In this document: one piece after another, positions 1,844 to 54,937 of the stretch
Position numbering within the stretch: position 1 is the first letter of the stretch
Layout: each line of letters begins with the position of its first letter
Virus record (IMG/VR): IMGVR_UViG_3300038379_000173
Span: 1 to 64,000 of that record
Reading direction: 5' to 3' (one strand)
Source of the DNA: a virus
Lineage: Duplodnaviria; Heunggongvirae; Uroviricota; Caudoviricetes
Length of the DNA stretch: 64,000 nt
Program-made: the position numbers and the translations under genes
The notes under the pieces: generated by a model
The model's input: only the letters and a program-made list of their open reading frames with translations
Told to the model about the DNA's origin: nothing
The model's database searches: none

Positions 1844-2075
1844 CGACATCCTAGGCGAATTGCTACGTCATAGCTGGCTTCGGCTGGAAATACATATTGT
1901 GTCCCCAAGGGGTTAACGGTAGGCTACCATCGCCAAACTATACTACCCAATGATATGATTAGCAATGTGGGCGGCGGCCGTGGGTCCGTTATTCAAGTAA
2001 TGAGAGGTTCGAGACCTCTGCCGCTCATTCATTACAAATGATTCCACGGTGTGGAACACGGAGTGTGAGTAAAAA

Positions 2076-4193: not shown

Positions 4194-4339
4194 ATTATAT
4201 TTGGTGGAACCTCTTCTCGTGGGTATGTTTGGCCGGTGCCATTATTCTGGCGCTCCAAGGTATTGATGGGTGGGGTTGGTTTTTGTTTGTAGCACTCATA
4301 ACGTGCGTGGCTCCCTCTGCAACTACGAAGAGTAGTTAG
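4190..4339 (+). CDS. small membrane protein (49 aa)
   Basis: ATGA overlap with upstream stop; hydrophobic, Trp-rich; not in the track (<60 aa). Confidence 0.35.
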   Translation: MNYIWWNLFSWVCLAGAIILALQGIDGWGWFLFVALITCVAPSATTKSS

Positions 4340-4367
4340 CTGTAGCTAACCATGTGGAGATTAAAGT

Positions 4368-4562
4368 ATGAAATACTGTGAATGTCAACATTGTGAACGT
4401 TTCCGCGCCAATATGCCCGAGCCGCGACTTCTAAAGGAATGCGCTGAGGCAATGGAGCGTCAATATTCTGCGTCGGAAGATAGCCGGAGGGGAAGGATTA
4501 AGCGCGGGCTTACCAAACAGGGTAATGTGCAAGCGCCAAAAACTCCCACAAGGAGTTACTAG
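4368..4562 (+). CDS. hypothetical protein (64 aa)
   Basis: RBS ggag before ATG. Confidence 0.45.
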   Translation: MKYCECQHCERFRANMPEPRLLKECAEAMERQYSASEDSRRGRIKRGLTKQGNVQAPKTPTRSY

Positions 4563-5401
4563 TGGAATTCCGCAAAATAAAATGCACATATCCCTTTGAC
4601 CCGATTAACGGGGGCCGCTTCATCATGCCGGCCAACACAATTTGTGCGGTATTAGATGTGGCGTTAACACCTAATACGGACAGTGGAGCTAGTGACTATA
4701 CAGTCATCACTCAAAATAATAAGTTTGGGAAAGTGGGTGGGGTTATACTCCCAGACACCTTTGTCAAGGTAACCCCGACCGAAAAAGTTCTTGCCACAAA
4801 ATATAAAGGCTATGACGTGGGCACCCTGTATTACGAGTTAGACAATGCGCTAAATCCTTCGCATCTCTTGATGTTTATTGATGGACGCTTTATTGAAGGA
4901 CCGATTATGTGCACAGATACTCCAGGGGATATAAAGGAAGTAAAGCAGACTCCAGAGTCGCCATCTGAACCAGTTAAACCAACGGTAAAAGAAATGACTA
5001 TGAAACCTATTAATCTAGACGATATCCACCACAATGGAAAATCTATCAAGGATGGTTTTGCCGGGAAAGCCAAAGAGACTACCGAAGAGGTTGTTAAGTT
5101 GCTTGGCGAAGTAGTTGCGGCAGATACTACTATGGAGCTAGAATGTGTGAAGGTTAACTTGCTTAACCGTATACAGGAGAGGGCTAAACTTATCAGTGTA
5201 GCCCAAGATGTTATGCGTAAGTCATCTTCTGTGAGTCTTTCTGAGTCGGCGGCCGATGATGTTAGGGGAAAAATAATCCCAACCCACGCGTACACACCCC
5301 CAGTCGTTGTATGTAAGGGGTATAATGGCCTGGAAGTACTTGTAGCATTTGCATTTGGGGCTATACTTATTCTAACAGCACTCTTTATGGGTTTGCTGTA
5401 A
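4562..5401 (+). CDS. hypothetical protein with C-terminal transmembrane anchor (279 aa)
   Basis: GTG start with aaggag 7 nt upstream; C-terminus VAFAFGAILILTALFMGLL is hydrophobic. Confidence 0.55.
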   Translation: MEFRKIKCTYPFDPINGGRFIMPANTICAVLDVALTPNTDSGASDYTVITQNNKFGKVGGVILPDTFVKVTPTEKVLATKYKGYDVGTLYYELDNALNPSHLLMFIDGRFIEGPIMCTDTPGDIKEVKQTPESPSEPVKPTVKEMTMKPINLDDIHHNGKSIKDGFAGKAKETTEEVVKLLGEVVAADTTMELECVKVNLLNRIQERAKLISVAQDVMRKSSSVSLSESAADDVRGKIIPTHAYTPPVVVCKGYNGLEVLVAFAFGAILILTALFMGLL

Positions 5402-6283: not shown

Positions 6284-6826
6284 GTGACAAACATGTGGTT
6301 TACGTCTGACACCCATTTCGGCCACTCCAACATCATCACCCTCAGTGCAAGGCCATTCTCCTCCATTGAGGAAATGAATGAGGGATTAATCTCCCGTTGG
6401 AATGAGTGCGTTAAAACGTCAGACGTTGTCTATCACTTGGGTGACTTCTCATTTCGACCGGCTTCACAGTTTCGTAGGAAACTCAACGGCCGCATCTGCC
6501 TCATAAGGGGCAATCACGATAAGGATAAGTTACTAAAGGACGCCGGCTTTGAATGGATTAAGGACGCATATAATGCGCGCGGCGACACAGAGCGTTCAAT
6601 TGGCGCGCGCTTTTGGTTGTCGCACTATCCGCATAGGGCATGGCCGCAAAGTCACAAAGGTTCCTTCCATCTCCATGGCCATTCGCACGGAAATATGCCA
6701 CGGTTGGGCCGCTCGATGGATGTTGGGGTGGACGTAGAAGGGCGCTATCGCCCCTGGCATATCGACGAAGTAATAGATGTATTGAAGGATGCCACAACAA
6801 CAGAACATCATCCGAAGGAAATGTAA
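6284..6826 (+). CDS. calcineurin-like metallophosphoesterase
   Basis: motifs SDTHFGH, GDFSFR, GNHD, GHSHG; start at GTG 6284 or ATG 6293. Confidence 0.8.
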   Translation: MTNMWFTSDTHFGHSNIITLSARPFSSIEEMNEGLISRWNECVKTSDVVYHLGDFSFRPASQFRRKLNGRICLIRGNHDKDKLLKDAGFEWIKDAYNARGDTERSIGARFWLSHYPHRAWPQSHKGSFHLHGHSHGNMPRLGRSMDVGVDVEGRYRPWHIDEVIDVLKDATTTEHHPKEM

Positions 6827-6961
6827 AAAAAGTCGAGACGAGTAGCTTACTACTTCAAATTATTTAGGCGTAACTCTTCAGATGACACACTACGTGGCCT
6901 ATACCAATATTCTTTTATTTATCCCAATACATCAAAGTGGTTACCGTCTACTATCCCGCTG

Positions 6962-7213
6962 TTGTGTTGTAGCGTATATCATTGCTTAATGAGCATTACT
7001 CAATTAACTTCGTTTGCTTATCATTTTGATGAAAAGACCGTTGAGCTTTGGCTGGTAAAAGCCGATATCACAAAACAACAAATAACTACTGATAAAGTAG
7101 CAGTAAGGTCCATTAGACTATTGCGGCAATTGCCTATACCACGAAAGCTCCCAAAGACCAAGAGTGGTTGGCGCACACAGTTGAAACATTGGGAATTAAG
7201 GGCGGATTTTTAA
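6962..7213 (+). CDS. hypothetical protein (83 aa)
   Basis: ORF only; weak support. Confidence 0.3.
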   Translation: MCCSVYHCLMSITQLTSFAYHFDEKTVELWLVKADITKQQITTDKVAVRSIRLLRQLPIPRKLPKTKSGWRTQLKHWELRADF

Positions 7214-7224
7214 GTTGCGCAGCT

Positions 7225-7950
7225 ATGGACGAACATTCACTTTCCGCCGACGTTATATTAGAAGTTATCCATGGTTCAAGGGCCTATGGTACCCACCATC
7301 CTGATAGCGATGTAGACTACAAAGGGGTAGTGTTGCCAACAACCCCTGCCATTTATTTTGGATTTGGACACTTCGAACAGAAAGATAAATGGGCCGACGG
7401 CGTTGACCGTGTATGGTACGATTTGCGCAAGTTTTGCCGACTGGCCCTGATGTGTAACCCTAACATCATTGAGGTCCTTTGGGTGCCGCCAGAATGTATT
7501 AAGGTGTGCACCGATATTGGCCACGAACTCATAGAAATGCGCCAGAGTTTTCTTTCCAAAAGAATCTTTAGGTCATTTGCCGGGTATGCTTATGACCAGG
7601 GAAAGAAATTGGCGGCAAAGGTAGAAAGAGGCGAACAGCCAAACTGGAAACATGCTATGCATCTAGTGCGCCTTTCTAGGATGGCGAACGAGATAGCAAG
7701 TAATGGTTCCATTATAGTACGGCGGCCGGACGCAGAAGAATTGAAAGAAATACGCGCCGGCCGTTGGAGTTACGACAAAATTATGGCGCATGTCGAGTTC
7801 CTAAAGGAATCCACGCACGTCCTTGAGAGTAGTAGTCCGCTACCAGTCCACCCTAATGATAGGGGCGTTGAGGAGTGGGTGGTTGGAGTGATACAACGGA
7901 GATTGCTTGGCGATGATATATATCGAAATTATGGATGCGTTAAAGAATGA
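7225..7950 (+). CDS. pol-beta-superfamily nucleotidyltransferase
   Basis: G-S-x9-D-S-D-V-D motif (GSRAYGTHHPDSDVDY) near the N-terminus; track ORF starts at TTG 7168, ATG at 7225. Confidence 0.7.
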   Translation: MDEHSLSADVILEVIHGSRAYGTHHPDSDVDYKGVVLPTTPAIYFGFGHFEQKDKWADGVDRVWYDLRKFCRLALMCNPNIIEVLWVPPECIKVCTDIGHELIEMRQSFLSKRIFRSFAGYAYDQGKKLAAKVERGEQPNWKHAMHLVRLSRMANEIASNGSIIVRRPDAEELKEIRAGRWSYDKIMAHVEFLKESTHVLESSSPLPVHPNDRGVEEWVVGVIQRRLLGDDIYRNYGCVKE

Positions 7951-8245
7951 GCCACGGCCAGGCGGATTGAGTAAGTTGATGAGGATACTAAACTCAACAC
8001 TCTTAGCTGGCCATTTTAATGCAGTTGATAAGGTATTAAAGATTGCTGACCCGCGCGAACTATCGGTGCGCGCCTCTATAGCACTTCTAACTGTCACATT
8101 GTCTGGGACCGACCAAGGATTACCATCTCGCCTGGGTTTTTTTCAACGCACTCTCGAACACTTTGAATCTATCGGTGAAAACGATATCAGGGGGCTATTG
8201 GGCGGCCTAGGCCCACTACCAGCTAAATATACGGAGATACAATGA
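7907..8245 (+). CDS. hypothetical protein
   Basis: ORF overlapping the nucleotidyltransferase 3' end; start uncertain. Confidence 0.4.
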   Translation: MAMIYIEIMDALKNEPRPGGLSKLMRILNSTLLAGHFNAVDKVLKIADPRELSVRASIALLTVTLSGTDQGLPSRLGFFQRTLEHFESIGENDIRGLLGGLGPLPAKYTEIQ

Positions 8246-8544
8246 CACTAATAGAAAAACTTCATGCGTTGTGGCCAGAAACATACAAAGGGTCAAAAAC
8301 TCTTCGTGGTTTCGAAATCTACCTGTCAAAAACAGGAAATATAATAAGGGTAATAGTCTCGCAAATGTATGAATTTGTTGATTGTTCTTTTAAAATTCTC
8401 AAAGGGCTGGCCGACATTTTTGGCACAGAATCAATCGACGTGGAAGGTTACAGTACGAGTGGCTGCGAGACGTGCGATTTTGGCTCGTCTTACATCAAAA
8501 CCTTCATAATTGAAAAAGCCACTAAACACACAGATGAGATATGA
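8242..8544 (+). CDS. hypothetical protein (100 aa)
   Basis: ATGA overlap with upstream gene. Confidence 0.5.
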   Translation: MTLIEKLHALWPETYKGSKTLRGFEIYLSKTGNIIRVIVSQMYEFVDCSFKILKGLADIFGTESIDVEGYSTSGCETCDFGSSYIKTFIIEKATKHTDEI

Positions 8545-8723
8545 CTAAGAAACATTTCGTTGAAATCGCACGTATTATCAACGGTGTCACCCCGCACGAA
8601 TATGGAACGTGTGATGGTCGTCGTGTTGCCATAGAGATAGCTGAACGTCTTGCTACATTTTTCTCAACACTCAACACCCATTTTGACCGCGCCGTCTTTA
8701 TGGCCGCGGCTATCCCGGAGTAA
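8541..8723 (+). CDS. hypothetical protein (60 aa)
   Basis: ATGA overlap with upstream gene. Confidence 0.45.
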   Translation: MTKKHFVEIARIINGVTPHEYGTCDGRRVAIEIAERLATFFSTLNTHFDRAVFMAAAIPE

Positions 8724-8725
8724 AA

Positions 8726-9391
8726 GTGCTCGATAGAGATACAGTTATAAAAAGAGCTGCCGATAACCTAACACGCATTTGTAATCTATCAAATGCCATA
8801 GAAGAAGTAATATCATCAAAAGACCACGTATTGGTGGGCTCAGCGGTATATAAAGCCCTTTGGGGAATAAACAAAAATATCCGTCACATATGCACCAACT
8901 ACGATTTTTTAGTCTGGGACCGTCCGGATGTCACAAAAGTAATGGCGGCATTTACCAGTGTGGGACTGACTCCGCAAGGTATAAGTAGCTCTTATGGCGG
9001 AAGTGCATTACAAATTACTCTCGCTGGCGAATTAACTGTCGATGTCGTATATGCCCCAGCTATGTCTTGGGACTGTCTCAATGAATTTACAATCCGAACA
9101 CCTCTAACGCACCAGGCCGTCTTCTTTTCAGAAGTGTCCTATCGACGTGGAGTATCTGCAAGTTTGTCCCTACAAGGCCCTGGGATTGACGATGCAATGG
9201 CCGGACAATTTAGAATCAATCCCACTGGGGATTTTAAACCCTCCGTACAATATCCGACAGTAGAAAGCTATGCTGCAGCAATAGCCGCGCGCACTGGATT
9301 TAAATGGTTAGACAGCACACCAGAAAAACACAAGTGTCGTTGTGATATTGTCACTTTGATGGGCCGCGGATGTAAATGTGGCGGGATATAA
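8726..9391 (+). CDS. hypothetical protein (221 aa)
   Basis: GTG start with ggag upstream. Confidence 0.5.
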   Translation: MLDRDTVIKRAADNLTRICNLSNAIEEVISSKDHVLVGSAVYKALWGINKNIRHICTNYDFLVWDRPDVTKVMAAFTSVGLTPQGISSSYGGSALQITLAGELTVDVVYAPAMSWDCLNEFTIRTPLTHQAVFFSEVSYRRGVSASLSLQGPGIDDAMAGQFRINPTGDFKPSVQYPTVESYAAAIAARTGFKWLDSTPEKHKCRCDIVTLMGRGCKCGGI

Positions 9392-9394
9392 AAT

Positions 9395-10129
9395 ATGAAC
9401 GACTTCGAAAAACTCATTGCGGCCCTCCCGGCCCACCGTTTGTATGTCGATACTGACGGCGCCCAAGGCGCTCGAATTGAGATGGTGGGCGCAAACCTCT
9501 GGGGCGCAAATCTCAGGGGCGCAGACCTCAGGGGCGTATACCTCAGTGGCGCAAACCTCTGGGGCGCAAACCTCGAGGGCGCAAACCTCAGGGGCGCAAA
9601 CCTCAGGGGCGCAAACCTCTGGGGCGCAAACCTCTGGGGCGCAAACCTCGAGGGCGCAAACCTCAGGGGCGCAAACCTCTGGGGCGCAAAGCTCGAGGGC
9701 GCAGACCTCAGGGCTGCAAATCTCGTGGGCGCAAACCTCGGGGACGCATACCTCGGGGGCGCAAATCTCGACGGCGCAGACCTTTCTAACGCCACTCTCC
9801 CAGACTTTCAATTGCCAGAGGGAACGTTGACCGCCTACAAGTTGTGCAACGGTATCTTGGTTACCCTCGAAATTCCGGCAGAAGCACGCCGCACTGCTTC
9901 GCTTGTCGGGCCCAAATGCCGCGCGGAATTCGCTATCGTGCGCCACGTGGACCATCCGTGGAAGGTTGCACGTAGTAGTGCTCAGCGTCCTCATAATACG
10001 CCCGAGATTGTCTACACGGAGGGCTCTACCGTTTTCCCGGATTTGTTTAATGACGACATTCGCGTAGAGTGTACGCACGGCGTACATTTCTACAGGACTA
10101 AGGAAGAAGCATTGGCGAGCGGGTTTTGA
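9395..10129 (+). CDS. pentapeptide-repeat protein with ~100-aa C-terminal domain
   Basis: about 20 consecutive GANL(W/R/E) pentapeptides; the C-terminal domain is duplicated at 1..315. Confidence 0.85.
   Translation: MNDFEKLIAALPAHRLYVDTDGAQGARIEMVGANLWGANLRGADLRGVYLSGANLWGANLEGANLRGANLRGANLWGANLWGANLEGANLRGANLWGAKLEGADLRAANLVGANLGDAYLGGANLDGADLSNATLPDFQLPEGTLTAYKLCNGILVTLEIPAEARRTASLVGPKCRAEFAIVRHVDHPWKVARSSAQRPHNTPEIVYTEGSTVFPDLFNDDIRVECTHGVHFYRTKEEALASGF
9488..9786 (+). repeat. 15-bp tandem repeat array (ggcgcaaacctcNNN, ~20 units) inside the pentapeptide-repeat CDS
   Basis: visible periodicity encoding G-A-N-L-x; also explains spurious long antisense ORFs 9268..9795 and 9308..10201. Confidence 0.85.
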
Positions 10130-10130
10130 T

Positions 10131-11261
10131 ATGAAATTACAGCCACTAAATGTCCTTTTAGACGGTAAATTAGATGGTCCGCTAGACCCTATTAGTGTCA
10201 TCCGTCACTTTCATCCATCTCTCCCGCTCGTTGGCCTAAAATACCATAAAACAGAATCCCCAAAATTCCATCCCATCGTGCGCCAATGTCGCGGAACTGT
10301 GTTGGAGTTACCAACCTTTCGTATAGTTGCCCGCCCTTTCAACCGCTTCTTTAATCTCCACAAGGATGTTGACGGCCAGGAAGGCTTCACTTGGAATCAC
10401 TTTACAGCCGAAACGAAGGAAGATGGCACACTTATCATCGCATTCAATTACGAAGGAAGATGGTTAATTAAAACAGGGGGTAGTTGGGCTCTCGGCAATA
10501 TTACCGCAAATGCGCCAACGTGGCAGCAGGCATTTTTTGATATCCTGCCGGTAGCTAATTTTTCTGTTTTAGACCCAGCCTATACTTATATGTTCGAATT
10601 GTGTACGCCATACAACAAAGTAGTAGTAAAATACGACCAACCCAAAGTCTTTCTTCTTGGTGCTATAAATACCTCGTCTGGCTGGGAATTAGACCATTCC
10701 GTGCTGGATTATATTGCTAGCCGCCTTGGATGTGCGCGACCTACAGTTTTTAGTTGCTCAGGCAATAGTGATTTGAAACGCCTAGTTGATAGTCTCTCTA
10801 AAGGCGATGTCAAGGAAGGTTTCGTACTACGCGATATAGCGTGCAGACGTATCAAAGTAAAAACGGCAGAATATCAAGCCCTACACCATCTAAAGGACAA
10901 CGGCAACATACTGCTGCCGCGGCGCTTGGCCGCCCTTGTGCTCTCTTCGAGGGAAAAAGAAACTCTCGCCGTATTCCCTGAAATGGCCGGGGCTCTGTCA
11001 AAGGTATCCGCAGACCTATATAATGCTATGGCGGACGTAGAGAACCTTTGGTGGGCCCACCGACAATTAAGCCGCAAGGATTTTGCGATAGAAATAAAGG
11101 ATACCCCATTTACGTGGGTGCTCTTTGGTCTCTATACAAATCCACCGAGTGATGTTCGCAGCACAATCTATGCAGCATTTGCGAATAACGTCGAGAAGGT
11201 GGCCCAAAAATTGTGGGGCGGCCAGGTGTTTCAGTTTGATTGTGCAGCGGCAGATGAATAG
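10131..11261 (+). CDS. rnlA: T4 Rnl1-type RNA ligase
   Basis: 376 aa (T4 Rnl1 is 374 aa); nucleotidyltransferase motif I K-E-D-G-T (ETKEDGTLI) matches T4 Rnl1 KEDGSL. Confidence 0.8.
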   Translation: MKLQPLNVLLDGKLDGPLDPISVIRHFHPSLPLVGLKYHKTESPKFHPIVRQCRGTVLELPTFRIVARPFNRFFNLHKDVDGQEGFTWNHFTAETKEDGTLIIAFNYEGRWLIKTGGSWALGNITANAPTWQQAFFDILPVANFSVLDPAYTYMFELCTPYNKVVVKYDQPKVFLLGAINTSSGWELDHSVLDYIASRLGCARPTVFSCSGNSDLKRLVDSLSKGDVKEGFVLRDIACRRIKVKTAEYQALHHLKDNGNILLPRRLAALVLSSREKETLAVFPEMAGALSKVSADLYNAMADVENLWWAHRQLSRKDFAIEIKDTPFTWVLFGLYTNPPSDVRSTIYAAFANNVEKVAQKLWGGQVFQFDCAAADE

Positions 11262-11442
11262 GACAAAAGACTGGATAATCATCATTTTATTCATTATCTT
11301 TATTTTACCGGGCAGCTTGATTTCTAAAATAAGACATCAAAATGGTAAATATGATGACGTAGACAACGCAATTACTTTCTGGATATTTTTTTTGAGTGCA
11401 ATCATGGTATGTTATATTTGGATATACGCCTCTGTGGTTTAA
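11256..11442 (+). CDS. small membrane protein (62 aa)
   Basis: ATG overlaps the Rnl1 stop; strongly hydrophobic (WIIIILFIIFILPG...). Confidence 0.45.
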
Positions 11443-11553
11443 GAAGTAGTATGAAACTTTGTATCTCGAGTAATGCGAAGTTAATATTACTTCATAGGAA
11501 AACGTCGCTTCAGAAAGCGAAGATTGCTGGCACGAACCCAGCCTGGGGCATTT

Positions 11554-11659
11554 GGACATGTAGCTCATAGAGTGTGGTTAAGATGCGCACTTAATCCTAC
11601 GCGGATAGAGCACCGAGTATTTAATTCGGAGGATGTAGGTTCGACTCCTACCGTGTCCG
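11554..11659 (+). tRNA. tRNA-like gene, anticodon TTT (Lys), with ~31-nt insertion in the D-loop
   Basis: acceptor GGACATG/CGTGTCC (one G-U); U8; D-stem GCTC/GAGC; anticodon stem CCGAG/TTCGG; loop TATTTAA; 5-nt variable loop; perfect T-arm GTAGG-TTCGACT-CCTAC; discriminator G; total 106 nt. Confidence 0.5.
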
Positions 11660-11668
11660 TATGGAGGA

Positions 11669-11959
11669 ATGATGAATACTGTAGAAATTCTTCGTAATGT
11701 AGATGATATCTTAAGCGATGAAACAAAATGGTGTAAGCATGAGATGATAAACAGCAACGGCGCGTGTTGTTTGTTAGGCGCACTAGAATTAGCAAGCCCT
11801 GATGATTGGCCCACCGAAGCAAGGTTATTGTTGTCTCAAGTAGTTCAAAAAAGAGGACACAATATGGTTATAACGTTTAATGACGCATACAGTACGTCTT
11901 TCAAAGACATCAAAGAGGTAATCCAAGAAGCCATAGATATGGCATCAAGAGACGTATGA
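11669..11959 (+). CDS. hypothetical protein, paralog family X copy 1 (KWCK...CCLLGAL...FND...FKDIKEVI)
   Basis: RBS ggagg before ATG; related to 39592..39915 and 11956..12313. Confidence 0.55.
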   Translation: MMNTVEILRNVDDILSDETKWCKHEMINSNGACCLLGALELASPDDWPTEARLLLSQVVQKRGHNMVITFNDAYSTSFKDIKEVIQEAIDMASRDV

Positions 11960-12313
11960 CAGCCCAGGAAATATTCGACAAAGTCGCAACACATCTTTTA
12001 ACACAAAACCGTAAGACACGTGATTCTCTTGGTTGCCTCTACAGAGGCCCAAGGAACAAAATGCGCCGTTGGTTGTCTCATCCCAGATGACATTTATAGT
12101 GTGGCCATGGAAGGATGGGGTGTGCATGAACTAATAATAGGATGGCCGGCTCTTTCTTGGTTTAAAAAACACGAAGACCTACTTGCTTCTCTCCAATACG
12201 TCCACGATGGTATGACAGAAGATAAATGGCCAGCGGCGCTTCGTGATGTAGTACAACAATACGGTTTGTCGCCTCTAATCCTTGAGAGCTTTAAAAATGT
12301 TGCGCCCTTGTAA
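11956..12313 (+). CDS. paralog family X copy 3, split across two frames (apparent +1 frameshift at the A4 run ~12056..12059)
   Basis: ATGA-coupled ATG 11956 opens frame a to 12090; frame b (12020..12313) continues with KCAVGCLIPDD..., aligning to CCLLGAL of copy 1; joining requires skipping one A. Confidence 0.4.
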
Positions 12314-12932
12314 ATTTTGTGGAACAGAAGCCGGCCACTGCGCATGGCGTGACGAACTTTGCCCCAAACACTATCACACCCGCGTGGTAGTTAAGTTCAA
12401 CGGCGGCAAAGGTGCTTTGTTATGCAATAGTTGCCATGTGATTGTAGCTGATTATCTATCAAGTGAAGAACTAAAAGGTCACACTTATCTCATTAGATGT
12501 GAGAAACATATTGCGCCTCACAAGTATATCATGAAGTGGTGGACCCGCGAAGAAGTAGCCGCTGACCCTACATTCACTTATGTGTTTGGAGATAACGCGA
12601 AAGATGCGAAAAGTGGTTATACTCCTCACGCCACACAAGCCGTCATACGTGGATTACCAAACGCTATCGGAATAGCGACCAAGAAAGACCGCGGCTCCAA
12701 CATTAATTCGTTCTTCAATGAAGAAGACTATGATGAATTTGCCGCGCATCTTAATGCGGCGGCAGACAAAATACGGGCCGCCAGGCGCCCCCTGGCACTT
12801 CCTTATGACGGTATTGGAACTGGGGCAGCGATGCTCTATGAGACTTCACCAAAGTGTTTTGCACTACTAAACTTAACACTCCGGGAGCTTCTGTATGAGT
12901 GCTCAGCCAATAATCGTCCTGCCGGCAATTGA
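12297..12932 (+). CDS. hypothetical protein: N-terminal Zn-ribbon (CKFCG...CPKHYH...CNSCH) plus conserved C-terminal domain (VFGDN...IRGLPNAIGIATKK...GIGTG)
   Basis: ORF; track start is TTG 12282, ATG at 12297. Confidence 0.5.
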   Translation: MLRPCKFCGTEAGHCAWRDELCPKHYHTRVVVKFNGGKGALLCNSCHVIVADYLSSEELKGHTYLIRCEKHIAPHKYIMKWWTREEVAADPTFTYVFGDNAKDAKSGYTPHATQAVIRGLPNAIGIATKKDRGSNINSFFNEEDYDEFAAHLNAAADKIRAARRPLALPYDGIGTGAAMLYETSPKCFALLNLTLRELLYECSANNRPAGN

Positions 12933-13121
12933 TGCAGATAAAGGGCTGTTAGAGTTAGCAAATAAGGAGCGCGGCCAACCGCTATGGTTTACTCTCATTC
13001 CAGAAGAGATGTTAGACTCTCAGAGAAACTATTGGGCGCCGTGGATTGCTCTGACTGACTCTAGATGCCTCCCAGATATAGTAGATGTGAACCCCGAAGG
13101 GCTTCTATTCATAGGTTACAT

Positions 13122-13448
13122 GTGAGCGATGAAATATTGCGGCGGGCCCACAGGAATTTTGTTTCTGGCGCTCTAGACCCTCTTGAATATTATCAATTGA
13201 GATTACGTTATGGCCTGAGAGACCCAAAAGTTACGCCTGTGGTTGGTGATATTGTGTTAGTATACGGTGAAACTAAAGTTTTCTGGAAAAGAAAAGTGAC
13301 GCATGTAGATAAAGATGGTATTTATTGGGTTTTCACAGAAGCGTGTGATGAAGAATATCTAAGTTACTCTTCTTGTTCAGGAAGTAAATTACCACAAAGT
13401 TTGTGGTACTCAGAATTCTGTTATCCTCTTGTCTATGGTGATGAATGA
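13122..13448 (+). CDS. hypothetical protein
   Basis: GTG start inferred from the upstream in-frame stop; weak RBS. Confidence 0.35.
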   Translation: MSDEILRRAHRNFVSGALDPLEYYQLRLRYGLRDPKVTPVVGDIVLVYGETKVFWKRKVTHVDKDGIYWVFTEACDEEYLSYSSCSGSKLPQSLWYSEFCYPLVYGDE

Positions 13449-13870
13449 GGGGCTATGTCGCCATTGGACTATTCTGTCCTTCCAAAGACGTTAATATTGG
13501 CGGCACAATGCGCGCAGCTTACTGTTACGGGGCCGGCTTAGTCGTAATCCAAGGAGTATATAAGCGTTACAGCACCGATACTGTTGCCGCCCACCGACAT
13601 ATTCCAACAGTACTCTGCACTGACATCCTAACCAACATCCCCTATGATTGTGTGCCTGTCGCCGTAGAGATAGTAGAAGGAGCGCGACCTTTGCCATCCT
13701 ACACACACCCACAAAGAGCCTTTTATATCTTTGGCCCTGAAGGCGGCTCGTTACCAGAGAGAATTTTGAAAGGTTGCCGCGATGTTGTTTCTATTCCAAC
13801 GCGCGCCTGTATGAATTTGGCGGCCACAGTAAATGTTGTATTGTATGACAGGGCGGCTAAAGGTCAATGA
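13445..13870 (+). CDS. SpoU-family (SPOUT) RNA 2'-O-methyltransferase, minimal TrmH/TrmL-like
   Basis: 141 aa; motifs IFGPEGGSLPE and CMNLAATVNVVLYDR typical of SPOUT methyltransferases. Confidence 0.7.
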   Translation: MRGYVAIGLFCPSKDVNIGGTMRAAYCYGAGLVVIQGVYKRYSTDTVAAHRHIPTVLCTDILTNIPYDCVPVAVEIVEGARPLPSYTHPQRAFYIFGPEGGSLPERILKGCRDVVSIPTRACMNLAATVNVVLYDRAAKGQ

Positions 13871-16280: not shown

Positions 16281-18374
16281 ATGAAATTGCAAGTGCCCGA
16301 CACCCCAGTGGTACGCTCAGGACCCTTTAAGGAAACCTCCTTCGGTTTTGGTGACCAACGAGTCATCATGGACATTCTTCGCCGCAGGATGTACCCAAAT
16401 CCTATAAAGGCTATCTGCCAGGAAGTGATGTGTAATGCGCGGGATGCTAATAGAGAGGCTGGGAGGGGCGAAGAACCGATTGTTGTGCGTATACCAACCG
16501 AACTTGCGCCAACCTATGAAGTCTCGGACCACGGACTAGGCATAACCCCCGAGAGAATGGAGGGCGTTTTCGTTCTTTATGGCGCCAGTACAAAGCGCGC
16601 TGACAACATCCAAACCGGCGGCTTTGGATTGGGCGCAAAAACTCCGTTTGCCTACTCAGACTCCTTCACTATTAGGACAACCAGTGATGAATCTGATGGT
16701 GTTAGGCGGACAAGACTCTATAGTGCCTATATTGATGAAACTCAGCTAGGCAAATTGGCTGAGATGTCAGTTGCAGTTACCCCGGACATGCCAACCGGCA
16801 CAACAATAAGTGTGGCAGTTAAACCAATTGACTTTCGCGCGTTCCTTACCTACTCCATTAGAGCCTCCAGGTGGTGGACACATAAACCATCCATACTACA
16901 CGCTAAAGTTACATGGCCAAATAGTTCTCCTGTCGTATGTGGCACTGACTGGTTCATTTCAAATGATGGTGATAGCGGAGTTTTGGTCGACGAAATTGAA
17001 TATCCACTCAATTGGGACTATACAGACAAAAGAAACGTTTTCCACTATATCTCATTGTTTATTAAATGCGGCGCAGCCGAAGTAAGCGTAAATGCTAATC
17101 GCGAAGAATTAGACTATAACGCAACCACAGTAGAATTCCTCAGAACTCGTATTGATGGAGTAATTGAGGAAATAAAAGAGAAGATAAATAAGGAAGTAGA
17201 AAGTGCGCCAAACCTCCTAGAGGCCATTTACACTTGGGAGAGCAAATCCGCCGCATTGGGCAACCTCTTCTATGGAATTACGCCAACGTGGCGTGGCAAA
17301 AAACTCTTTCGTACTATAGACTTTGGTCTCTGTCCACTATTATCAACAACTGATAAACTAGCAGACCATTTGTCGTTCACTAACGTGGAACGCGCAGTAG
17401 TAATGTATGGCAAACCAATTCGCTCATATCATAATAGGGCTTATATATCTGTCAAAACAAGGTGTCTTTGCATTGAAAATGATACTGGTAAGCCGCTAGA
17501 TAAGCGTATGCTGGTAAGCAGTTTTACGGCCGACGCTACCCTCGATTACATTTGGGTTGTAACGTTTAACAGTCAACACGGCCGCGATTGGCTTGAGAAT
17601 ACCTATTCGTGGAGCGACCTAGCTCCAATCAAACTCTCCACTCTCCCAATTCTCCCACTCCCAGTCCCGGATGGAGATGAGGAGAAGGAGGAGGAAAAGT
17701 TAGTAAGAAGGACACGTCCAAAGGGTTACAAAATCATTCCTGTCAAGCGTATCCAGGATGATGGGACAATAGTTAATGACGAAAATAAAAAAGTCGTTGA
17801 CCAGACTGGCGGCGTGTATGTATTAAAGCGCGACAACTATCTCTGGATGGTGAATGGAAAGAAAGTGCGCGCCGAAACAGTAGTAGAGGCCGCCAAGTGG
17901 CTCGGAGTCATTCCATACGTAATTTTAAATAGACACCACGAAAAAATATCTGTAAATTGGGTAAGTCTAGATTGCGCTCTCGAAAAACGCTTTAAAGAAA
18001 TACAGGACAGTGATGATTATAAAGCGTATATGACGTATGGAGAAGATGCTCATGTTGCAACCCTTTTTGGTAAGGTAACCATTAATGCTTTAAGTGCACA
18101 TAAATGGAGAGTAAGTAATTCATTCACCGAATGGCTAAACAAAACTCGTTTAGTGTTAGAAGGTCAGAAAAAACGAAACAGTTTGCACAAATATTGGACA
18201 ATGCTTTATAACACACCGCTTCTGACACCAGAAAACAAGGGTGTAGAGTTATTAGAAGAAGTTCATAAAGAATTTCCGCTTTTTATGTTCTTGACTAGGT
18301 CGTATCGTTTAGATTTTGATACGGCAACCAATGACCTAATTTCGTATTTTGAATTGAAAGGAACACCAGTATGA
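16281..18374 (+). CDS. rIIA: rIIA-like protein with N-terminal GHKL-type ATPase fold
   Basis: 697 aa; N box EVMCNARDA, G1 box DHGLGI, G2 box GGFGLGAK; followed by a translationally coupled rIIB-sized gene. Confidence 0.6.
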   Translation: MKLQVPDTPVVRSGPFKETSFGFGDQRVIMDILRRRMYPNPIKAICQEVMCNARDANREAGRGEEPIVVRIPTELAPTYEVSDHGLGITPERMEGVFVLYGASTKRADNIQTGGFGLGAKTPFAYSDSFTIRTTSDESDGVRRTRLYSAYIDETQLGKLAEMSVAVTPDMPTGTTISVAVKPIDFRAFLTYSIRASRWWTHKPSILHAKVTWPNSSPVVCGTDWFISNDGDSGVLVDEIEYPLNWDYTDKRNVFHYISLFIKCGAAEVSVNANREELDYNATTVEFLRTRIDGVIEEIKEKINKEVESAPNLLEAIYTWESKSAALGNLFYGITPTWRGKKLFRTIDFGLCPLLSTTDKLADHLSFTNVERAVVMYGKPIRSYHNRAYISVKTRCLCIENDTGKPLDKRMLVSSFTADATLDYIWVVTFNSQHGRDWLENTYSWSDLAPIKLSTLPILPLPVPDGDEEKEEEKLVRRTRPKGYKIIPVKRIQDDGTIVNDENKKVVDQTGGVYVLKRDNYLWMVNGKKVRAETVVEAAKWLGVIPYVILNRHHEKISVNWVSLDCALEKRFKEIQDSDDYKAYMTYGEDAHVATLFGKVTINALSAHKWRVSNSFTEWLNKTRLVLEGQKKRNSLHKYWTMLYNTPLLTPENKGVELLEEVHKEFPLFMFLTRSYRLDFDTATNDLISYFELKGTPV

Positions 18375-30308: not shown

Positions 30309-30858
30309 ATGGTTCCAATAACATACTACGACAACTTTGTCCTAGAGCCCAATAAAGTCCTGGCCGCCCTTCAAAAAGACCTCGCATGGGAGCGCCATGG
30401 AGACACGCCGCGCTGCGAATATTACATCAATGATTACGGCGCGCCATATACATATGGGAGGGGCTTGGGGGCAGCGCACATATAAACCTGGTCCATCCCA
30501 TCCTCTGGTGGATGAAATAAGGGTCGCGGCCGAGGAGTCGCTTCATTATACCTTCGACACTTGCTTCCTTAATCGCTATTTGAATCAAAGAGATAGTTTA
30601 GGATGGCATGCCGACAACGAGCCCGAAATGGACAATGAAAGGCCCATCCTAACAGTTTCACTTGGGGCCGAGCGCGAAATTTGGTTCCGTCCTTTAAATA
30701 ACCTGAGTGACGTTACTAAGGTCCTATTGCGGAATAGCTCCTTGTGTGTCATGGCGCCTGGTATGCAACAAACTCACCAACATCGTATACCAAAAGCATC
30801 CTTTATATGTGGAGAGAGAATTTCATTGACGTTCAGGGGGTATGTGCGTGGAAGATGA
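30309..30858 (+). pseudogene. alkB: AlkB-like 2OG-Fe(II) dioxygenase split across two frames (30309..30485 and 30397..30858); +1 frameshift in G-run ~30456..30470
   Basis: N-part MVPITYYDNFVLEPNK...YGAPYTYG ends at TAA 30483; C-part carries LGWHADNEPEMDNERPILTVSLGAEREIWFRP and a second His (HQHRIP); could be a sequencing indel or a real frameshift. Confidence 0.55.
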
Positions 30859-34292: not shown

Positions 34293-34589
34293 GTGTCGTG
34301 TCTCGTCATGGATGAACAATTAAGAACACTAGAGCGTGCCGCCGCCCAAGGAGACACTGAGGCCCAACAGCAATTGGAGAGGCAAGGAGCCAGGTGTGGC
34401 TCACCGTGGGATGAATATGTAGGGAAGAACATTTATTGTCACTTTTCAGATAAAAGAGATTCCAGTGGAGTATTGCGTTGGGTTAAACGTGCTGGTTATC
34501 ACTATGTTGGTCGTGTAGATAGTATACAAAGTAATAAAATTCGTATTGTTAATTTAACACTAGCATTGCTAATAGAAGTAACACCATGA
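34293..34589 (+). CDS. hypothetical protein (98 aa)
   Basis: ORF. Confidence 0.4.
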   Translation: MSCLVMDEQLRTLERAAAQGDTEAQQQLERQGARCGSPWDEYVGKNIYCHFSDKRDSSGVLRWVKRAGYHYVGRVDSIQSNKIRIVNLTLALLIEVTP

Positions 34590-35251
34590 AAATAGTCGCA
34601 ACCTCAGACACTCACGGCCAACTTGGGAAAGTCAAGCTGCCGCCAGGCGATGTATTGGTCGTCGCTGGGGACATCCTAAGGAACTTTACACTAGACCGTC
34701 ACATAGATTCACAAATACAGTTGAAGCATTTAAAGTGCGACTTTGTGCCGTGGCTTATAATGTGCCGCAAAATTTACAGCACCATCCTGGTCATCCCTGG
34801 CAATCACGACAGGTGTTTTGAACATCTAGAGAATGAGTGTAGGCGGCTTGTTGAAGAAGTTGATAGAACATTCCTATTGATTGACCGCACTATCGATATT
34901 GATGGAGTAAAATTTTACGGTAGCCCTTGGACGCCTTGGTTTTACGGTGATGTTTGGTCGTTCAATATACCAGAAAAAGAGGGCGCGGCCAAAGCAATTT
35001 GGGAAAAGATACCCGCAGATACTGACGTTGTGATAACGCATGGGCCGCCTTATGGTATCAGGGATTATTGTGATAGACACGCTGGGTGTTCAGTGTTGGG
35101 CTCTAGGATTTTAGAAATAAAGCCGCGCGCCCATATATTTGGACACATCCACGAAGGTGCGGGACAGTCGTTAATAGACAGTACCCTATATGTTAATGCA
35201 GCATTCATGGATAAAGGTAGCGGGCCGCAAGTTTCTGAGGTTACCAAATGA
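34586..35251 (+). CDS. calcineurin-like metallophosphoesterase (second copy)
   Basis: motifs SDTHGQ, GDIL, PGNHD, GPPYG, GHIHEG. Confidence 0.8.
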   Translation: MKIVATSDTHGQLGKVKLPPGDVLVVAGDILRNFTLDRHIDSQIQLKHLKCDFVPWLIMCRKIYSTILVIPGNHDRCFEHLENECRRLVEEVDRTFLLIDRTIDIDGVKFYGSPWTPWFYGDVWSFNIPEKEGAAKAIWEKIPADTDVVITHGPPYGIRDYCDRHAGCSVLGSRILEIKPRAHIFGHIHEGAGQSLIDSTLYVNAAFMDKGSGPQVSEVTK

Positions 35252-37370: not shown

Positions 37371-37654
37371 CTAGAGGAATGTTTTTCAAAAAAGCTATAC
37401 AACTGACTCATGATGCCCTAGAGGCAAATAAAAAAAGAGAGGTAGACAGAACGCGCGAAAAAGCACAACTCGAAATACCCAAAATATACGAAGGAATAAA
37501 TAAGGCTGCGGCCAGAGGAGAAACTAATCTTGCTTGGGGTGTAGGAGATGAGCACAATGAATTTTTTGATGTTATTCATCAAGAACTTCAAGCGGAAGGT
37601 TTTGGAACCTACAGTAAAGGAGAATGTATCTATATCTCATGGAGAGATTGGTAG
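37367..37654 (+). CDS. hypothetical protein (95 aa)
   Basis: ATGA overlap. Confidence 0.5.
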   Translation: MTRGMFFKKAIQLTHDALEANKKREVDRTREKAQLEIPKIYEGINKAAARGETNLAWGVGDEHNEFFDVIHQELQAEGFGTYSKGECIYISWRDW

Positions 37655-38124
37655 TGCTTAAACTTCTCTTCCTAGACATTGATGGCGTTCTAAACACCCA
37701 TGACTTTGACGAGATAGCTAACTCCAATACCATCGAGAGAGATAAAGTAGCACTACTAAACCAAGTATTAGACCGCACTGGATGTCATTTGGTTATTAGT
37801 AGTGCTTGGCGCTACACCATTCTAAATGGCGCACAAACTCTCCTCGGCTTTGAATATATGCTGCGCTCTCACTCCATTCATTGTTGCGGGAAGGTTCATG
37901 GTCATACATGTAGCGACGAAGCAATTGATGGAAGTTTGGTACGCGAAGCCCAAATACTCAATTATCTGAATGTACGGACAACGTTTGGACAAAAATTTGC
38001 AGTGGTGGATGATTTACCGCTTCGACTCCCAAAGGATGTGTTTGTACAAACAGACGCAGAGTGTGGACTAACACAATCAAATGTTGATAGACTCATAGAA
38101 ATACTAGGGGAACATGACAGTTAA
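37639..38124 (+). CDS. HAD-superfamily phosphatase (T4 Pnkp-phosphatase-like DxDGT motif)
   Basis: motif I LLFLDIDGVLN, motif II VISSAW, motif IV VVDD. Confidence 0.6.
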   Translation: MERLVVLKLLFLDIDGVLNTHDFDEIANSNTIERDKVALLNQVLDRTGCHLVISSAWRYTILNGAQTLLGFEYMLRSHSIHCCGKVHGHTCSDEAIDGSLVREAQILNYLNVRTTFGQKFAVVDDLPLRLPKDVFVQTDAECGLTQSNVDRLIEILGEHDS

Positions 38125-38749: not shown

Positions 38750-39119
38750 GGGGGTGAATTAGCTTCGATTAGTATTGCCAAAATATCCGTGCAGGTCGTG
38801 GTGGAGTAGGCCACGTTAAACCGCTCCAAAGTTTAAATGCCAAGACTACGGTCAAAGCAAGCCGGTTCGCCGGCATCCGCGGCTATCGCGTTGTTCGCAG
38901 CGCGCCTGTCGCACTCGTCGCCTAACGAGCAATTAGGTAAAGGCTCCGGGCCTCCTCTCGGAAGTTCCTATGAGGAGTCTAAGTAATAGGTACTAATACA
39001 TAGACTATTTGCTCAATAGAAATTGAGATAGGTTGGTTGAACCGACAAAACAACCCAAGCTTGTGGATGAATGGATATAGCGGAATATTGAGACGCGGGT
39101 GCAAGTCCCGCCACCTCCA
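38750..39119 (+). ncRNA. ssrA: probable tmRNA (ssrA), CCA not encoded
   Basis: 5' GGGGGTG pairs with 3' CACCTCC including a G3-U wobble; discriminator A; T-arm GCGGG-TGCAAGT-CCCGC; 3' end GACGCGGGTGCAAGTCCCGCCACCTCCA closely resembles the E. coli ssrA 3' end; 5' GGGGGTGAATTAGCTTCGA resembles tmRNA 5'; internal frame ends ...SAPVALVA-TAA at 38923..38925; about 370 nt with no protein ORF. Confidence 0.6.
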
Positions 39120-39133
39120 TCGAAAGGGGTTTT

Positions 39134-39580
39134 ATGCGTGCCAAATCGCTTCGGCTTCATACATTCCCAGAAGATGAGAATGTATTGCGGACTAAGTGTC
39201 GTGAAGTAACAGTTGCGGACATCGATACAATACAGAAAGTCGCCCCAGAAATGTATCATTTGGGCCGCTCGCTCGCCGCGGCAGCTATAGCTGCCCCCCA
39301 AGTGGGGCTTGACTTAGCTTTCTTCGTTCACTGCGGATTGCGCTCTGAAGTAGTGATAAATCCCCGCTATAGGGTTTTGTCATACGCCTCAAGCGTGGTG
39401 GCCCCAGAGGGATGTTTGAGTTTCCCAGACAAAGTCCAAGACGTTGCACGTTGGAATTGTATAGCAGTAGATTACTTGACGTCGCGCTGGACTGTAGTAG
39501 AGAAACATCTCTATGATTTTGAAGCAAGAGTTTTTCAGCACGAGGTTGACCACCTCGAAGGTAAATTGTTCATTGATTGA
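39134..39580 (+). CDS. def: peptide deformylase
   Basis: three PDF motifs: G-L-AAPQVG, EGCLSFP, QHEVDHLEG. Confidence 0.85.
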   Translation: MRAKSLRLHTFPEDENVLRTKCREVTVADIDTIQKVAPEMYHLGRSLAAAAIAAPQVGLDLAFFVHCGLRSEVVINPRYRVLSYASSVVAPEGCLSFPDKVQDVARWNCIAVDYLTSRWTVVEKHLYDFEARVFQHEVDHLEGKLFID

Positions 39581-39591
39581 AGGAGCCTAAC

Positions 39592-40363: not shown

Positions 40364-40442
40364 CTTGACGACTTTAGGGGCGCCCCGTGTATTATTATGC
40401 GGGCCGCCAACTTCTCTGACCCCGCGCGGCTATGGGTTTTTC

Positions 40443-41147
40443 ATGCAACGTAAAAAAGGTAAACATGGTGGACGTTCTAAGATTCTTTTTAAACCGCGAA
40501 GTGAGGGTCAACGACGATACGTCGAATCTATAGAAAATAATACAGTAACTTTATGTGCGGGATATGCTGGGACTGGCAAGACACTCTGTGCAATTGCTAC
40601 TGCTATCGGACTTTGTCAAAATCCGACAACACCATATAGGCGTATTATTTTAGTTAGGCCCGCGGTTGAAGCTTGCGGTGAGCGTATTGGTTATTTGCCA
40701 GGCGGCATTAATGACAAAATGCGCCCACTTGTCCAACCTATCATTGACGCTATGCGTGTGCTTACAGACGATGAGTCGTTTATCAATGAATTGATTGACG
40801 GCCATAGTATTCATGGGCCTGGTATGGAAATAGTCCCCATGGCTTTTATGCGCGGCCGGACATTTTCCAATGCCATTGTGCTATTGGATGAAGCACAAAA
40901 TGCCTCACCGGCGCAGATTAAACTTTTCCTAACGCGCATTGGGGAAAACTGCAAGGTTATTATCGAAGGCGACCCGACTCAATCGGACATCTATGATGAT
41001 AGAGATAAAACAGGGTTGATGGATGCGATAAGGCGCATTGGAAGCTTGGACGACGTTGGAGTTGTGACCCTAGAGGTCTCAGATATACAACGCAACCCAA
41101 TCCTAGAGAGTATTTTGAAACGCTATGGGGATGTGAAGGGTACGTAG
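40443..41147 (+). CDS. phoH: PhoH-family ATPase
   Basis: Walker A GYAGTGKT, LLDEAQN, GDPTQSD; internal ATG 40443 gives the PhoH-typical size (track ORF starts 40365). Confidence 0.8.
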   Translation: MQRKKGKHGGRSKILFKPRSEGQRRYVESIENNTVTLCAGYAGTGKTLCAIATAIGLCQNPTTPYRRIILVRPAVEACGERIGYLPGGINDKMRPLVQPIIDAMRVLTDDESFINELIDGHSIHGPGMEIVPMAFMRGRTFSNAIVLLDEAQNASPAQIKLFLTRIGENCKVIIEGDPTQSDIYDDRDKTGLMDAIRRIGSLDDVGVVTLEVSDIQRNPILESILKRYGDVKGT

Positions 41148-54935: not shown

Positions 54936-54937
54936 GT

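Follow-up and report, generated by a model that had tools for sequence, protein, structure and literature searches.

Is a phage that encodes an RNA ligase, a nucleotidyltransferase, phosphoesterases and 2'-O-methyltransferases equipped to mend RNA broken by its host, or does it carry these genes side by side for separate ends? This question is raised by a 64 kb stretch of uncultured tailed-phage DNA, positions 1 to 64,000 of IMG/VR record IMGVR_UViG_3300038379_000173 (referred to as the window), and above all by its genes at 6284-13870. Cleavage of tRNA is a widespread anti-phage strategy, used by PrrC, RloC, PARIS, retron effectors and Schlafens, and how phages answer it, whether through repair or through resistant tRNAs, is being actively mapped. 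A sequence-only reading of the window had proposed that a scattered set of RNA-repair and tRNA-modification genes repairs or pre-emptively modifies tRNAs and so keeps translation running during host RNA-targeting defence. Judged by the proteins that it encodes, the block at 6284-13870 is probably a co-directional module for repairing breaks in RNA, chiefly tRNA, of a kind known from T4 and the jumbo phages. The locus adds a deep-branching uncultured example to the phage answers to tRNA cleavage.

Repair proteins of the block

Pfam calls were judged against curated gathering cut-offs, and motifs by inspection. Every protein listed in the sequence-only reading proved to be real, in its place and above its Pfam gathering score, and profile searches assigned the set to RNA families rather than to families of DNA metabolism (Table 1).

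The ligase matches PHROG 562 over residues 36-357 (5e-47) and has 376 residues, compared with 374 in T4 Rnl1, the PDB alignment covering only the part up to residue 283. Set against the T4 Rnl1 structure 2c5u, its motifs read TKEDGT for TKEDGS (with the adenylated lysine), FEL for FEF, EGFV for EGYV and KVKT for KIKS. The ligase scores 65.3 bits against NCBIfam TIGR02308, the T4 RnlA equivalog, below the cut-off of 242. By these profiles it is a divergent member of the Rnl1 family, not an ortholog-grade match to the T4 enzyme.

The nucleotidyltransferase, for which profile classification had been proposed, turned out to belong to RlaP, a family associated with RNA ligases. It matches PHROG 388 (1.8e-55) and carries the Pol-beta signature 'IHGSRAYG...DSDVDY', and its gene precedes that of Rnl1 by 2.2 kb in the same orientation. 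RlaP enzymes of Pseudomonas add one or two nucleoside monophosphates to RNA 3'-OH ends and favour damaged RNA; their authors propose RlaP as an answer to RloC-type nucleases, and T4 NrdC.11 is a member of the same family (PMC12776372).

The first metallophosphoesterase, MPP1, matches PHROG 547 ('phosphoesterase', 7.6e-55) and PDB entry 1xm7 (1.3e-13), and the motifs DTH, GD, GNHD, H and GHSH are all there. It is a candidate healer of 2',3'-cyclic-phosphate and 3'-phosphate ends. The 2'-O-methyltransferase SpoU1 has the motifs NIGGTMRAA, IFGPEGGSLP and MNLAATVNVVLY. Two small open reading frames (ORFs) of the block gave no Pfam match, and the pentapeptide-repeat protein is probably not part of the repair module.

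Gene order in relatives

The phage to which the block belongs is tailed, has a genome of at least 167 kb and is without close relatives in culture. On a JGI contig of 167,041 bp there is an identical copy of the ligase protein, and a Logan contig from an independent run (SRR12687280, 148,759 bp) is 99.99% identical across the 12.9 kb compared, so that a large uncultured tailed phage is present in two datasets. Megablast of the block against 50,697 deposited phage records returned no close DNA relative, and a scan of IMG/VR with a single ligase sequence found no relatives. The best cultured matches reached 25-33% identity for rIIA and 27-32% for the ligase.

A 99-kb Logan contig, L001, nevertheless keeps the order and orientation of the block. 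There, Metallophos, RlaP, a 100-aa ORF, a 67-aa ORF, a 215-aa ORF, Rnl1 and DUF7831 are followed by three small ORFs, SpoU, GP88, rIIA, rIIB and WGR-PARP. Identities to L001 are given in Table 1; SpoU1 is the best-conserved protein of the block. Relative to L001, the window has two insertions, the pentapeptide/DUF5758 gene (9395-10129) and a segment of ~1 kb (11262-12280). The description of the repair genes as scattered therefore does not fit 6284-13870, which is co-directional and syntenic in L001; it does fit a looser set at 28-41 kb, considered below.

In the distant phage L005 the order differs: Rnl1, RlaP, HD, AAA_33 kinase, Rnl2, Metallophos. Its RlaP is a 29% identical homolog encoded 0.8 kb after Rnl1, and its Metallophos protein, encoded right after the Rnl2-type ligase, is 35% identical (5e-34) to MPP2, a second metallophosphoesterase of the window. 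Counted by tblastn at E<=1e-5 in 50,697 phage records, Rnl1-like genes occur in 1,064 (2.1%), RlaP-like genes in 748 (1.5%) and MPP1-like genes in 1,872 (3.7%). Here all three lie within 5 kb of each other, a combination that is not due to chance.

Two side observations concern L001 itself. It encodes Thg1, a 3'-5' tRNA-His guanylyltransferase, at 4287-5039, 2.3 kb upstream of its repair block; a search of the window for Thg1 found none. The DUF5758 part of the pentapeptide-repeat protein is 65% identical to a stand-alone L001 protein, whose counterpart in the window is the ORF at 13-315 (+).

The polynucleotide kinase

A ligase of this kind needs a 5'-phosphate, and a kinase P-loop had not been found in the sequence-only reading. 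For the window, this holds. Its sole strict Walker A motif in a sizeable ORF is the GYAGTGKT of PhoH, and neither tblastn with four phage polynucleotide kinase (PNK)/AAA_33 sequences nor a custom kinase hidden Markov model (HMM) with filters off found a kinase there. Pfam scans of about 60 ORFs, together with the precomputed annotation of an identical contig, gave no kinase in the window and the 8 kb beyond. Of the 167 kb or more that make up the genome, the kinase search thus covered roughly 72 kb, and about 95 kb lay outside it.

In the nearest cultured phages, Pnkp is encoded downstream of the ligase, at a distance of 0.1 kb in Pseudomonas phage SYP and 4.6 kb in Paraglaciecola GD virus 1. 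In more distant metagenomic relatives, an AAA_33 kinase is encoded within the cluster or close to it. Since cultured kin carry Pnkp beside this type of ligase, the simpler, default expectation is that another part of the genome encodes a kinase. Most likely, the 5'-kinase is encoded there, or else is needless, should the host nuclease produce ends with a 5'-phosphate. The earlier suggestion of a different end-healing route is not established, because it rests on the absence of a kinase from 64 kb plus 8 kb of this large genome. Were a kinase truly absent from the whole genome, that would mean a repair route for 5'-phosphate breaks or new end-healing chemistry, a claim that the window by itself does not permit.

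A model for tRNA repair

The families present suggest how repair might proceed. A host anticodon nuclease would cut tRNAs, leaving 2',3'-cyclic phosphate or 3'-phosphate ends and sometimes causing the loss of a nucleotide. MPP1, MPP2 and/or a standalone HAD phosphatase would then turn the 3' end into a 3'-OH, and RlaP would restore one or two nucleotides where they had been lost. Finally, Rnl1, through a lysine-AMP intermediate at its KEDG motif, would join the 3'-OH to a 5'-phosphate, which could be supplied by a kinase encoded outside the window, by the host, or by a nuclease that leaves it in place. The window's transfer-messenger RNA (tmRNA), deformylase and PhoH may help to clear stalled ribosomes, a role that Iyer et al. 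suggested for PhoH (PMC7824862).

The proteins belong to the families named, their active-site motifs are intact and their gene order is kept. For Rnl1 and RlaP the proposed chemistry would be that established for their homologs. For the MPPs and the HAD phosphatase we infer an end-healing role from family and context, and any part played by SpoU, for example 2'-O-methylation that blocks re-cleavage, would have a similar standing.

A tRNA-Lys(UUU)-derived gene beside the ligase

The sequence-only reading mentioned a tRNA-like gene but gave no coordinates for it; the best candidate is a tRNA-Lys(UUU)-derived element at 11554-11660. Its acceptor stem, GGACATG/CGTGTCC, is paired at 7/7 positions. 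The D stem is GCTC/GAGC, the anticodon stem CCGAG/TTCGG, the variable loop AGGAT and the T arm GTAGG-TTCGACT-CCTAC; the discriminator is G, and CCA is not encoded. Two features set the element apart. Its D-loop holds ~35 extra nucleotides (nt) between A14 and G18G19, which can form a hairpin, and in its anticodon loop, TATTTAA (UAUUUAA), position 33 is A, not the near-universal U. Minimum free energy (MFE) folding yields a cloverleaf whose D domain is enlarged (z = -3.2). ARAGORN made no tRNA call at this site, and the Rfam tRNA model RF00005, with a cut-off of 29 bits, reached 18.4 there and had to skip the D arm to do so. When 30-40 nt of the D-loop were deleted in silico, ARAGORN called tRNA-Lys(ttt) in every register tried. 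The gene is identical in the independent assembly L006 and is therefore not an assembly artefact; it is not at the corresponding site in L001.

Among the systems that attack tRNA-Lys(UUU) are PrrC and PARIS; T4 withstands the former with its ligase (PMC10264068) and T5 the latter with a variant tRNA-Lys (PMC11464382). That a gene derived from this tRNA follows closely on the ligase points to tRNA-Lys as the substrate being contested, and in the context of PrrC and PARIS a cleavage-resistant or decoy tRNA-Lys is an option worth testing. The element could be such a tRNA, or it could be a decaying gene.

A recurrent, repair-linked class of tRNAs with D-loop insertions or A33 was also considered and was dropped. 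When IMG/VR was scanned by pattern for D-arms interrupted by 24-50 nt, a few genuine cases came up, most hits being partial tRNA duplications; A33 proved rare; and there were no repair genes near the D-loop-insertion or A33 loci. The genuine insertion cases (L007 757-859; L009 5896-5981 with L013 167-252; L015 1193-1281) combine 7/7 acceptor pairing and D-loop insertions of 34-50 nt with odd anticodon loops, having C33 or only 5-6 nt, and receive no ARAGORN call. The UAUUUAA loop occurs at 4 viral and 11 metagenomic loci, some of them otherwise canonical tRNAs with CCA in the tRNA arrays of huge phages. In a control count on viral contigs, A33 was found 4 times, G33 twice, C33 not once and canonical U33 at least 120 times, so A33 is rare and not clearly selected. 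tRNAs with this A33 loop and CCA, canonical in other respects, are found at L030 1866-1906, L031 7971-8011, L036 517-557 and 1392-1432, and L039 1173-1213. Several A33 tRNAs lie in the tRNA arrays of 0.4-Mb phage contigs, beside suppressor-type tRNAs, and ARAGORN skips those of L030 and L031.

The small DUF6197 gene that follows the tRNA-like element has a paralog (33% identity) at 39577-39915 (+), downstream of the tmRNA-deformylase pair, and each DUF6197 gene comes shortly after a gene for a structured RNA. The pattern 'W..G.CCLG ... FND..SF..I' of the DUF6197 paralogs recurs in the DUF8296 protein (29177-29503), and the two may belong to one superfamily.

The 221-aa protein and DUF7831

Two further proteins of the block have orthologs in L001. 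The first, of 221 residues, had no Pfam, NCBIfam or significant PDB match in profile searches, and searches of 1.8-5.8 billion proteins matched its own lineage only. AlphaFold, run on two sequences of the family, gave a pLDDT of 35 and an unusable model. In L003, whose ligase is 39% identical, local comparison identified the protein encoded directly after Rnl1 as a homolog. The three family sequences share 'VG[GS]..Y..L', a third Asp that is invariant, and a knuckle, CxC...GCKCGG, at the C-terminus; the acidic motif of the family is DLD or DWD, and NYD in the window copy. The N-terminal pattern resembles that of Pol-beta nucleotidyltransferases, as judged from a short motif and a non-significant match to NTP_transf_6 (E = 0.31).

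The second protein, DUF7831, has a predicted fold that is weakly macrodomain-like, which makes it a candidate ADP-ribose or phosphate-processing enzyme. Its residues N105, R123 and K134 are invariant. A BFVD fold search with it returned other DUF7831 proteins only. In a relative, the DUF7831 gene overlaps the ligase stop codon. The window also encodes a 407-aa protein with WGR and PARP catalytic domains (19714-20937, +), 67% identical to its copy in L001; PARPs have been reported in few jumbo phages only (PMC7824862). The WGR-PARP protein may be connected with the macro-like DUF7831 and with a YpsA SLOG protein encoded at about 44.9 kb.

The second set at 28-41 kb

The genes at 28-41 kb are interspersed with many unannotated small ORFs. 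Among them, SpoU2 matches AviRb (PDB 1x7o) and TrmH at 5e-6 to 1e-4 and is a distant paralog of SpoU1 (28% identity, with three SpoU motifs in both). Identifying the SpoU target nucleotide had been proposed as a check; the NCBIfam target subfamilies (TrmL for Nm34, TrmH for Gm18, RlmB and TrmJ) yielded no assignment, all scores falling far below threshold. The best were TrmL for SpoU1 (23.9 bits, cut-off 190.6) and RlmB for SpoU2 (46.5 bits, cut-off 160). It would be chemically reasonable for the SpoU proteins to methylate the 2'-O of tRNAs pre-emptively against transesterifying nucleases, a role that would recall Hen1 in the bacterial Pnkp/Hen1 systems.

MPP2 has all five metal motifs (DxH, GD, GNHD, H and GHxH) and belongs to a family different from that of MPP1. 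The HAD_SAK_2 protein, a standalone 'Swiss-army-knife' HAD phosphatase, matches its profile over the full length (1-139/139) and has the motifs DIDGV, SS and VVDD; it is a candidate 3'-phosphatase. Between the MPP2 and HAD_SAK_2 genes there is a weak WYL match. The AlkB-like protein is predicted to remove alkylation or methyl marks from DNA or RNA. A Band_7/SPFH protein and DUF8296 may possibly serve as a scaffold, with a weak link to repair; in L003 a DUF8296 homolog lies beside a Metallophos gene near Rnl1.

The tmRNA of the earlier reading was borne out by Rfam and is genuine, although ARAGORN did not call it. Its acceptor stem, GGGGGUG/CACCUCC, contains the G3.U70 pair, and its tag reading frame, AKTTVKASRFAGIRGYRVVRSAPVALVA, ends in ...PVALVA. 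The last 27-28 nt, with an unusual T-loop (TGCAAGT), equal the 3' ends of two tmRNAs from uncultured Clostridia metagenome-assembled genomes (L172 4487-4864 and L173 7763-8000), and 185,579 species genomes gave no further such match; outside these nucleotides the sequences differ. This shared 3' end is either a host hint, too weak to use, or a relic of an attachment site.

SpoU2, MPP2, the HAD phosphatase, tmRNA, deformylase and PhoH plausibly support translation rescue. Except for the MPP2 homolog in the L005 cluster, this set is tied to the block by proximity only. The SpoU and tmRNA genes, too, are connected with the repair genes through co-location, and we hold that connection with much less confidence than the core module itself. 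Of the proposed defence programme, then, the core of end healing and sealing is supported, on the evidence of the RNA families and of precedent in jumbo phages, whereas the links to SpoU and tmRNA are not.

Table 1. Features of the window discussed in the text, with profile evidence (cut-offs in brackets) and protein identity to L001
Feature	Position	Strand	Evidence	Identity to L001
MPP1, calcineurin-type metallophosphoesterase, aq_1665-like / PHROG 547	6284..6826	+	Pfam Metallophos 26 bits (21.5)	69%
RlaP nucleotidyltransferase	7225..7950	+	PF10127 74.6 bits (23), 1.3e-20	61%
Two small conserved ORFs, 100 aa and 60 aa	8242..8723	+	orthologs in L001	64% (100 aa); 43% (60 aa)
Unannotated ligase-adjacent protein, 221 aa	8726..9391	+	motif pattern, ortholog in L001	35%
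Pentapeptide-repeat + DUF5758 protein	9395..10129	+	Pentapeptide 5.5e-41, DUF5758 4e-16	
T4 Rnl1-type ATP-dependent RNA ligase	10131..11261	+	PF09511 RNA_lig_T4_1 54.1 bits (28.3), 2.5e-14	55%
tRNA-Lys(UUU)-derived gene, 107 nt	11554..11660	+	293 nt past ligase stop codon	
DUF6197 small protein	11669..11959	+	PF19698 3e-11; start 9 nt past tRNA-like gene	
DUF7831 protein with Cys-rich N-terminus	12282..12932	+		59%
SpoU1, minimal SPOUT 2'-O-methyltransferase, 141 aa	13445..13870	+	PF00588 49.7 bits (29.7), 5.3e-13	78%
rIIA	16281-18374			
rIIB	18371-19432			
Band_7/SPFH protein	28278-29180	+	Band_7 3.2e-26	
DUF8296 protein	29177-29503	+	annotation of identical contig	
AlkB-like 2OG-Fe(II) oxygenase	30397..30858	+	precomputed PF13532, identical Logan contig	
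SpoU2, SPOUT 2'-O-methyltransferase, 170 aa	32017..32529	+	PF00588 79.5 bits, 3.5e-22	
MPP2, second metallophosphoesterase	34586..35251	+	Metallophos 53 bits, 7.7e-14	
HAD_SAK_2, standalone HAD phosphatase	37639..38124	+	PF18143 68.1 bits (27.5), 1.4e-18	
tmRNA	38750..39122	+	Rfam RF00023 89.9 bits (47), model positions 1-374	
Peptide deformylase	39134..39580	+	PF01327 2.3e-30; start 12 nt past tmRNA	
PhoH-like ATPase	40365..41147	+	PF02562 1.4e-61	

Alternative explanations

Several observations weigh against a dedicated repair module. No gene for a polynucleotide kinase was found in the window and the 8 kb that follow, the SpoU targets cannot be assigned by subfamily profiles, and the synteny with L001 may reflect recent common ancestry instead of functional coupling. 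The MPP1 family, present in 1,872 records against 1,064 for the ligase type, need not act on RNA, and PHROG 562 bears the name 'RNA ligase and tail fiber protein attachment catalyst', T4 Rnl1 (gp63) having a tail-fibre role. These last two points are what one would expect if the genes were independent accessories sharing an early region, with Rnl1 serving tail-fibre attachment, the MPPs acting on proteins or signalling nucleotides, the SpoU enzymes aiding translational takeover by modifying rRNA or tRNA, and the tmRNA acquired on its own. In keeping with such independence, the second set spans 13 kb among many unrelated small ORFs, and promoter and terminator scans of the block stayed at background level, with no operon structure above it. 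We nevertheless regard this explanation as quite unlikely. The RlaP and HAD_SAK_2 families are defined by their association with RNA-repair ligases, and the ligase keeps all its catalytic residues, which, as gp63 genetics showed, the tail-fibre role in T4 does not need. Synteny with L001 would alone be weak evidence of coupling, but the association of ligase, RlaP and MPP recurs, reordered, in the distant L005. A slightly better, though still poor, chance attaches to a conflict system based on NAD+ or ADP-ribose, in which DUF7831, and possibly MPP1, would work with the WGR-PARP and YpsA SLOG proteins to process ADP-ribose derivatives or defence nucleotide signals. Elsewhere, DUF7831 indeed keeps company with NAD/ADP-ribose genes and not with ligases, a further point against its part in repair; on the other side stand its overlap with a ligase gene in a relative and its place after Rnl1 in L001. 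Repair of broken RNA by the block as a whole remains the reading that we prefer.

Within the repair reading, the tRNA-like element poses a question of its own, namely whether it is a decaying tRNA-Lys pseudogene or insertion remnant that lies by the ligase through coincidence and has no function. This is a serious possibility, if somewhat short of an even chance. The element sits within the ~1 kb segment not found in L001, the D-loop insertion and A33 are defects for which ARAGORN and Rfam both reject it, and loops with A33 and UUU are rare, at 4 compared with 2 for G33 and at least 120 canonical ones. Only identical copies are available, so that there is no variation from which covariation could be read. 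However, pairing is perfect in all four stems, the T-loop and G18G19 are retained and the insertion can form a hairpin, which speaks against decay, as decay should also have cost the gene its pairing; and canonical cloverleaves with the UAUUUAA loop and an encoded CCA exist in other phage tRNA arrays. The most ambitious proposal would make the tRNA-Lys RNA a counter-defence device, either a cleavage-resistant substitute for the host tRNA-Lys or a decoy for a PrrC-, RloC- or PARIS-like nuclease, in a kinase-less module to which the 221-aa family and DUF7831 add new end-processing activities. In a bolder version still, the D-loop insertion would be cut out and the phage ligase would rejoin the halves. 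Taken whole, we consider this a long shot, the least probable of the proposals discussed here.

Comparison with known systems

The repair set is a known type of system in a new, deep-branching phage, and not a new kind. Like the T4 system that repairs tRNA-Lys with Rnl1 (gp63) and Pnkp against PrrC, it has the same Rnl1 motifs, RlaP and a HAD-type phosphatase, it is found in a large phage with rIIA and rIIB, and tRNA-Lys(UUU) is implicated. Unlike in T4, no Pnkp was found in 72 kb and the HAD phosphatase stands alone, without a fused kinase; the ligase, about 27-32% identical to the Rnl1 of cultured phages, also falls far below the RnlA equivalog cut-off. The bacterial Pnkp/Hen1 system and the Pnkp of Clostridium thermocellum, which combine kinase, metallophosphoesterase and ligase and were studied by Shuman and by Huang, offer a second comparison. 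Common ground with the window is a metallophosphoesterase, in those systems the 2',3'-cyclic phosphodiesterase/3'-phosphatase module, and a 2'-O-methyltransferase that could protect the repaired junction. The window differs in that its methylase is of the SPOUT-class SpoU type and not Hen1, its proteins are separate, no kinase module is seen and its MPP family (aq_1665-like) is a different one.

Jumbo phages encode Rnl1 and Rnl2, RlaP that mirrors the ligases, occasional calcineurin-like phosphatases, Thg1 and PhoH, and their SAK HAD has been described as a standalone RNA 3'-phosphatase (Iyer et al. 2021, PMC7824862 sec. 3.4.9). This framework of repair toolkits goes back, according to papers that cite it, to Burroughs & Aravind (2016, NAR 44:8525). 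The window shares with these toolkits the ATP-dependent ligase, RlaP, standalone SAK HAD, calcineurin-like phosphoesterase and PhoH, and L001 adds Thg1. The earlier statement that this is more than a phage needs is overstated; such a set is typical of large phages. What sets the block apart from the jumbo-phage toolkits is the conserved family of the 221-aa protein, with its nucleotidyltransferase-like and Cys-knuckle features, together with DUF7831, the position of SpoU as best-conserved gene and the non-canonical tRNA-Lys gene within the cluster. The tRNA-Lys of T5 that counters the AriB effector of PARIS (PMC11464382) is, like the window element, a phage tRNA-Lys(UUU) variant with an altered anticodon stem-loop; the T5 tRNA is canonical and functional and has stem substitutions, whereas the window element has A33 and an insertion of ~35 nt in the D-loop and is missed by standard tools.

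As far as we have checked, the tRNA-Lys gene in the cluster, the 221-aa family, and DUF7831 with SpoU in a conserved block are not yet in the literature. The unannotated ligase-adjacent family, DUF7831 with its macro-like fold and the aberrant tRNA-Lys gene in a repair cluster are therefore leads to follow.

Other features of the window

The window is about 45% G+C and contains ~130 mostly small ORFs, on the + strand to about 46 kb and in a - strand block from about 50 kb. Its other genes include those for a sigma factor, a RuvB-like AAA protein, PhoH, Dam and UDG. The RuvB-like AAA+ gene is directly followed by that of the sigma-70 family factor (regions 2 and 4), the two occupying 23622-25335 (+); a sigma factor of its own would probably allow the phage to redirect host RNA polymerase.

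An intergenic element at 1967-2028 (+), with no Rfam family and not a tRNA, has a 9-bp terminal stem around three hairpins, the last of which is T-arm-like (AGAGG-TTCGAGA-CCTCT); its MFE is -29.1 kcal/mol (z = -3.35). At the other end, a long minus-strand run of sugar-nucleotide genes extends over 54327-63598 (-) and about 8 kb beyond (L174). Its members are GDP-mannose dehydratase-like, epimerase, NTP transferase, UDP-glucose dehydrogenase, UDP-GlcNAc 2-epimerase and glycosyltransferase genes, and it also includes an HD-domain protein, HSP20 and a trypsin-like protease. This run may have a role in the glycosylation of DNA or of the surface.

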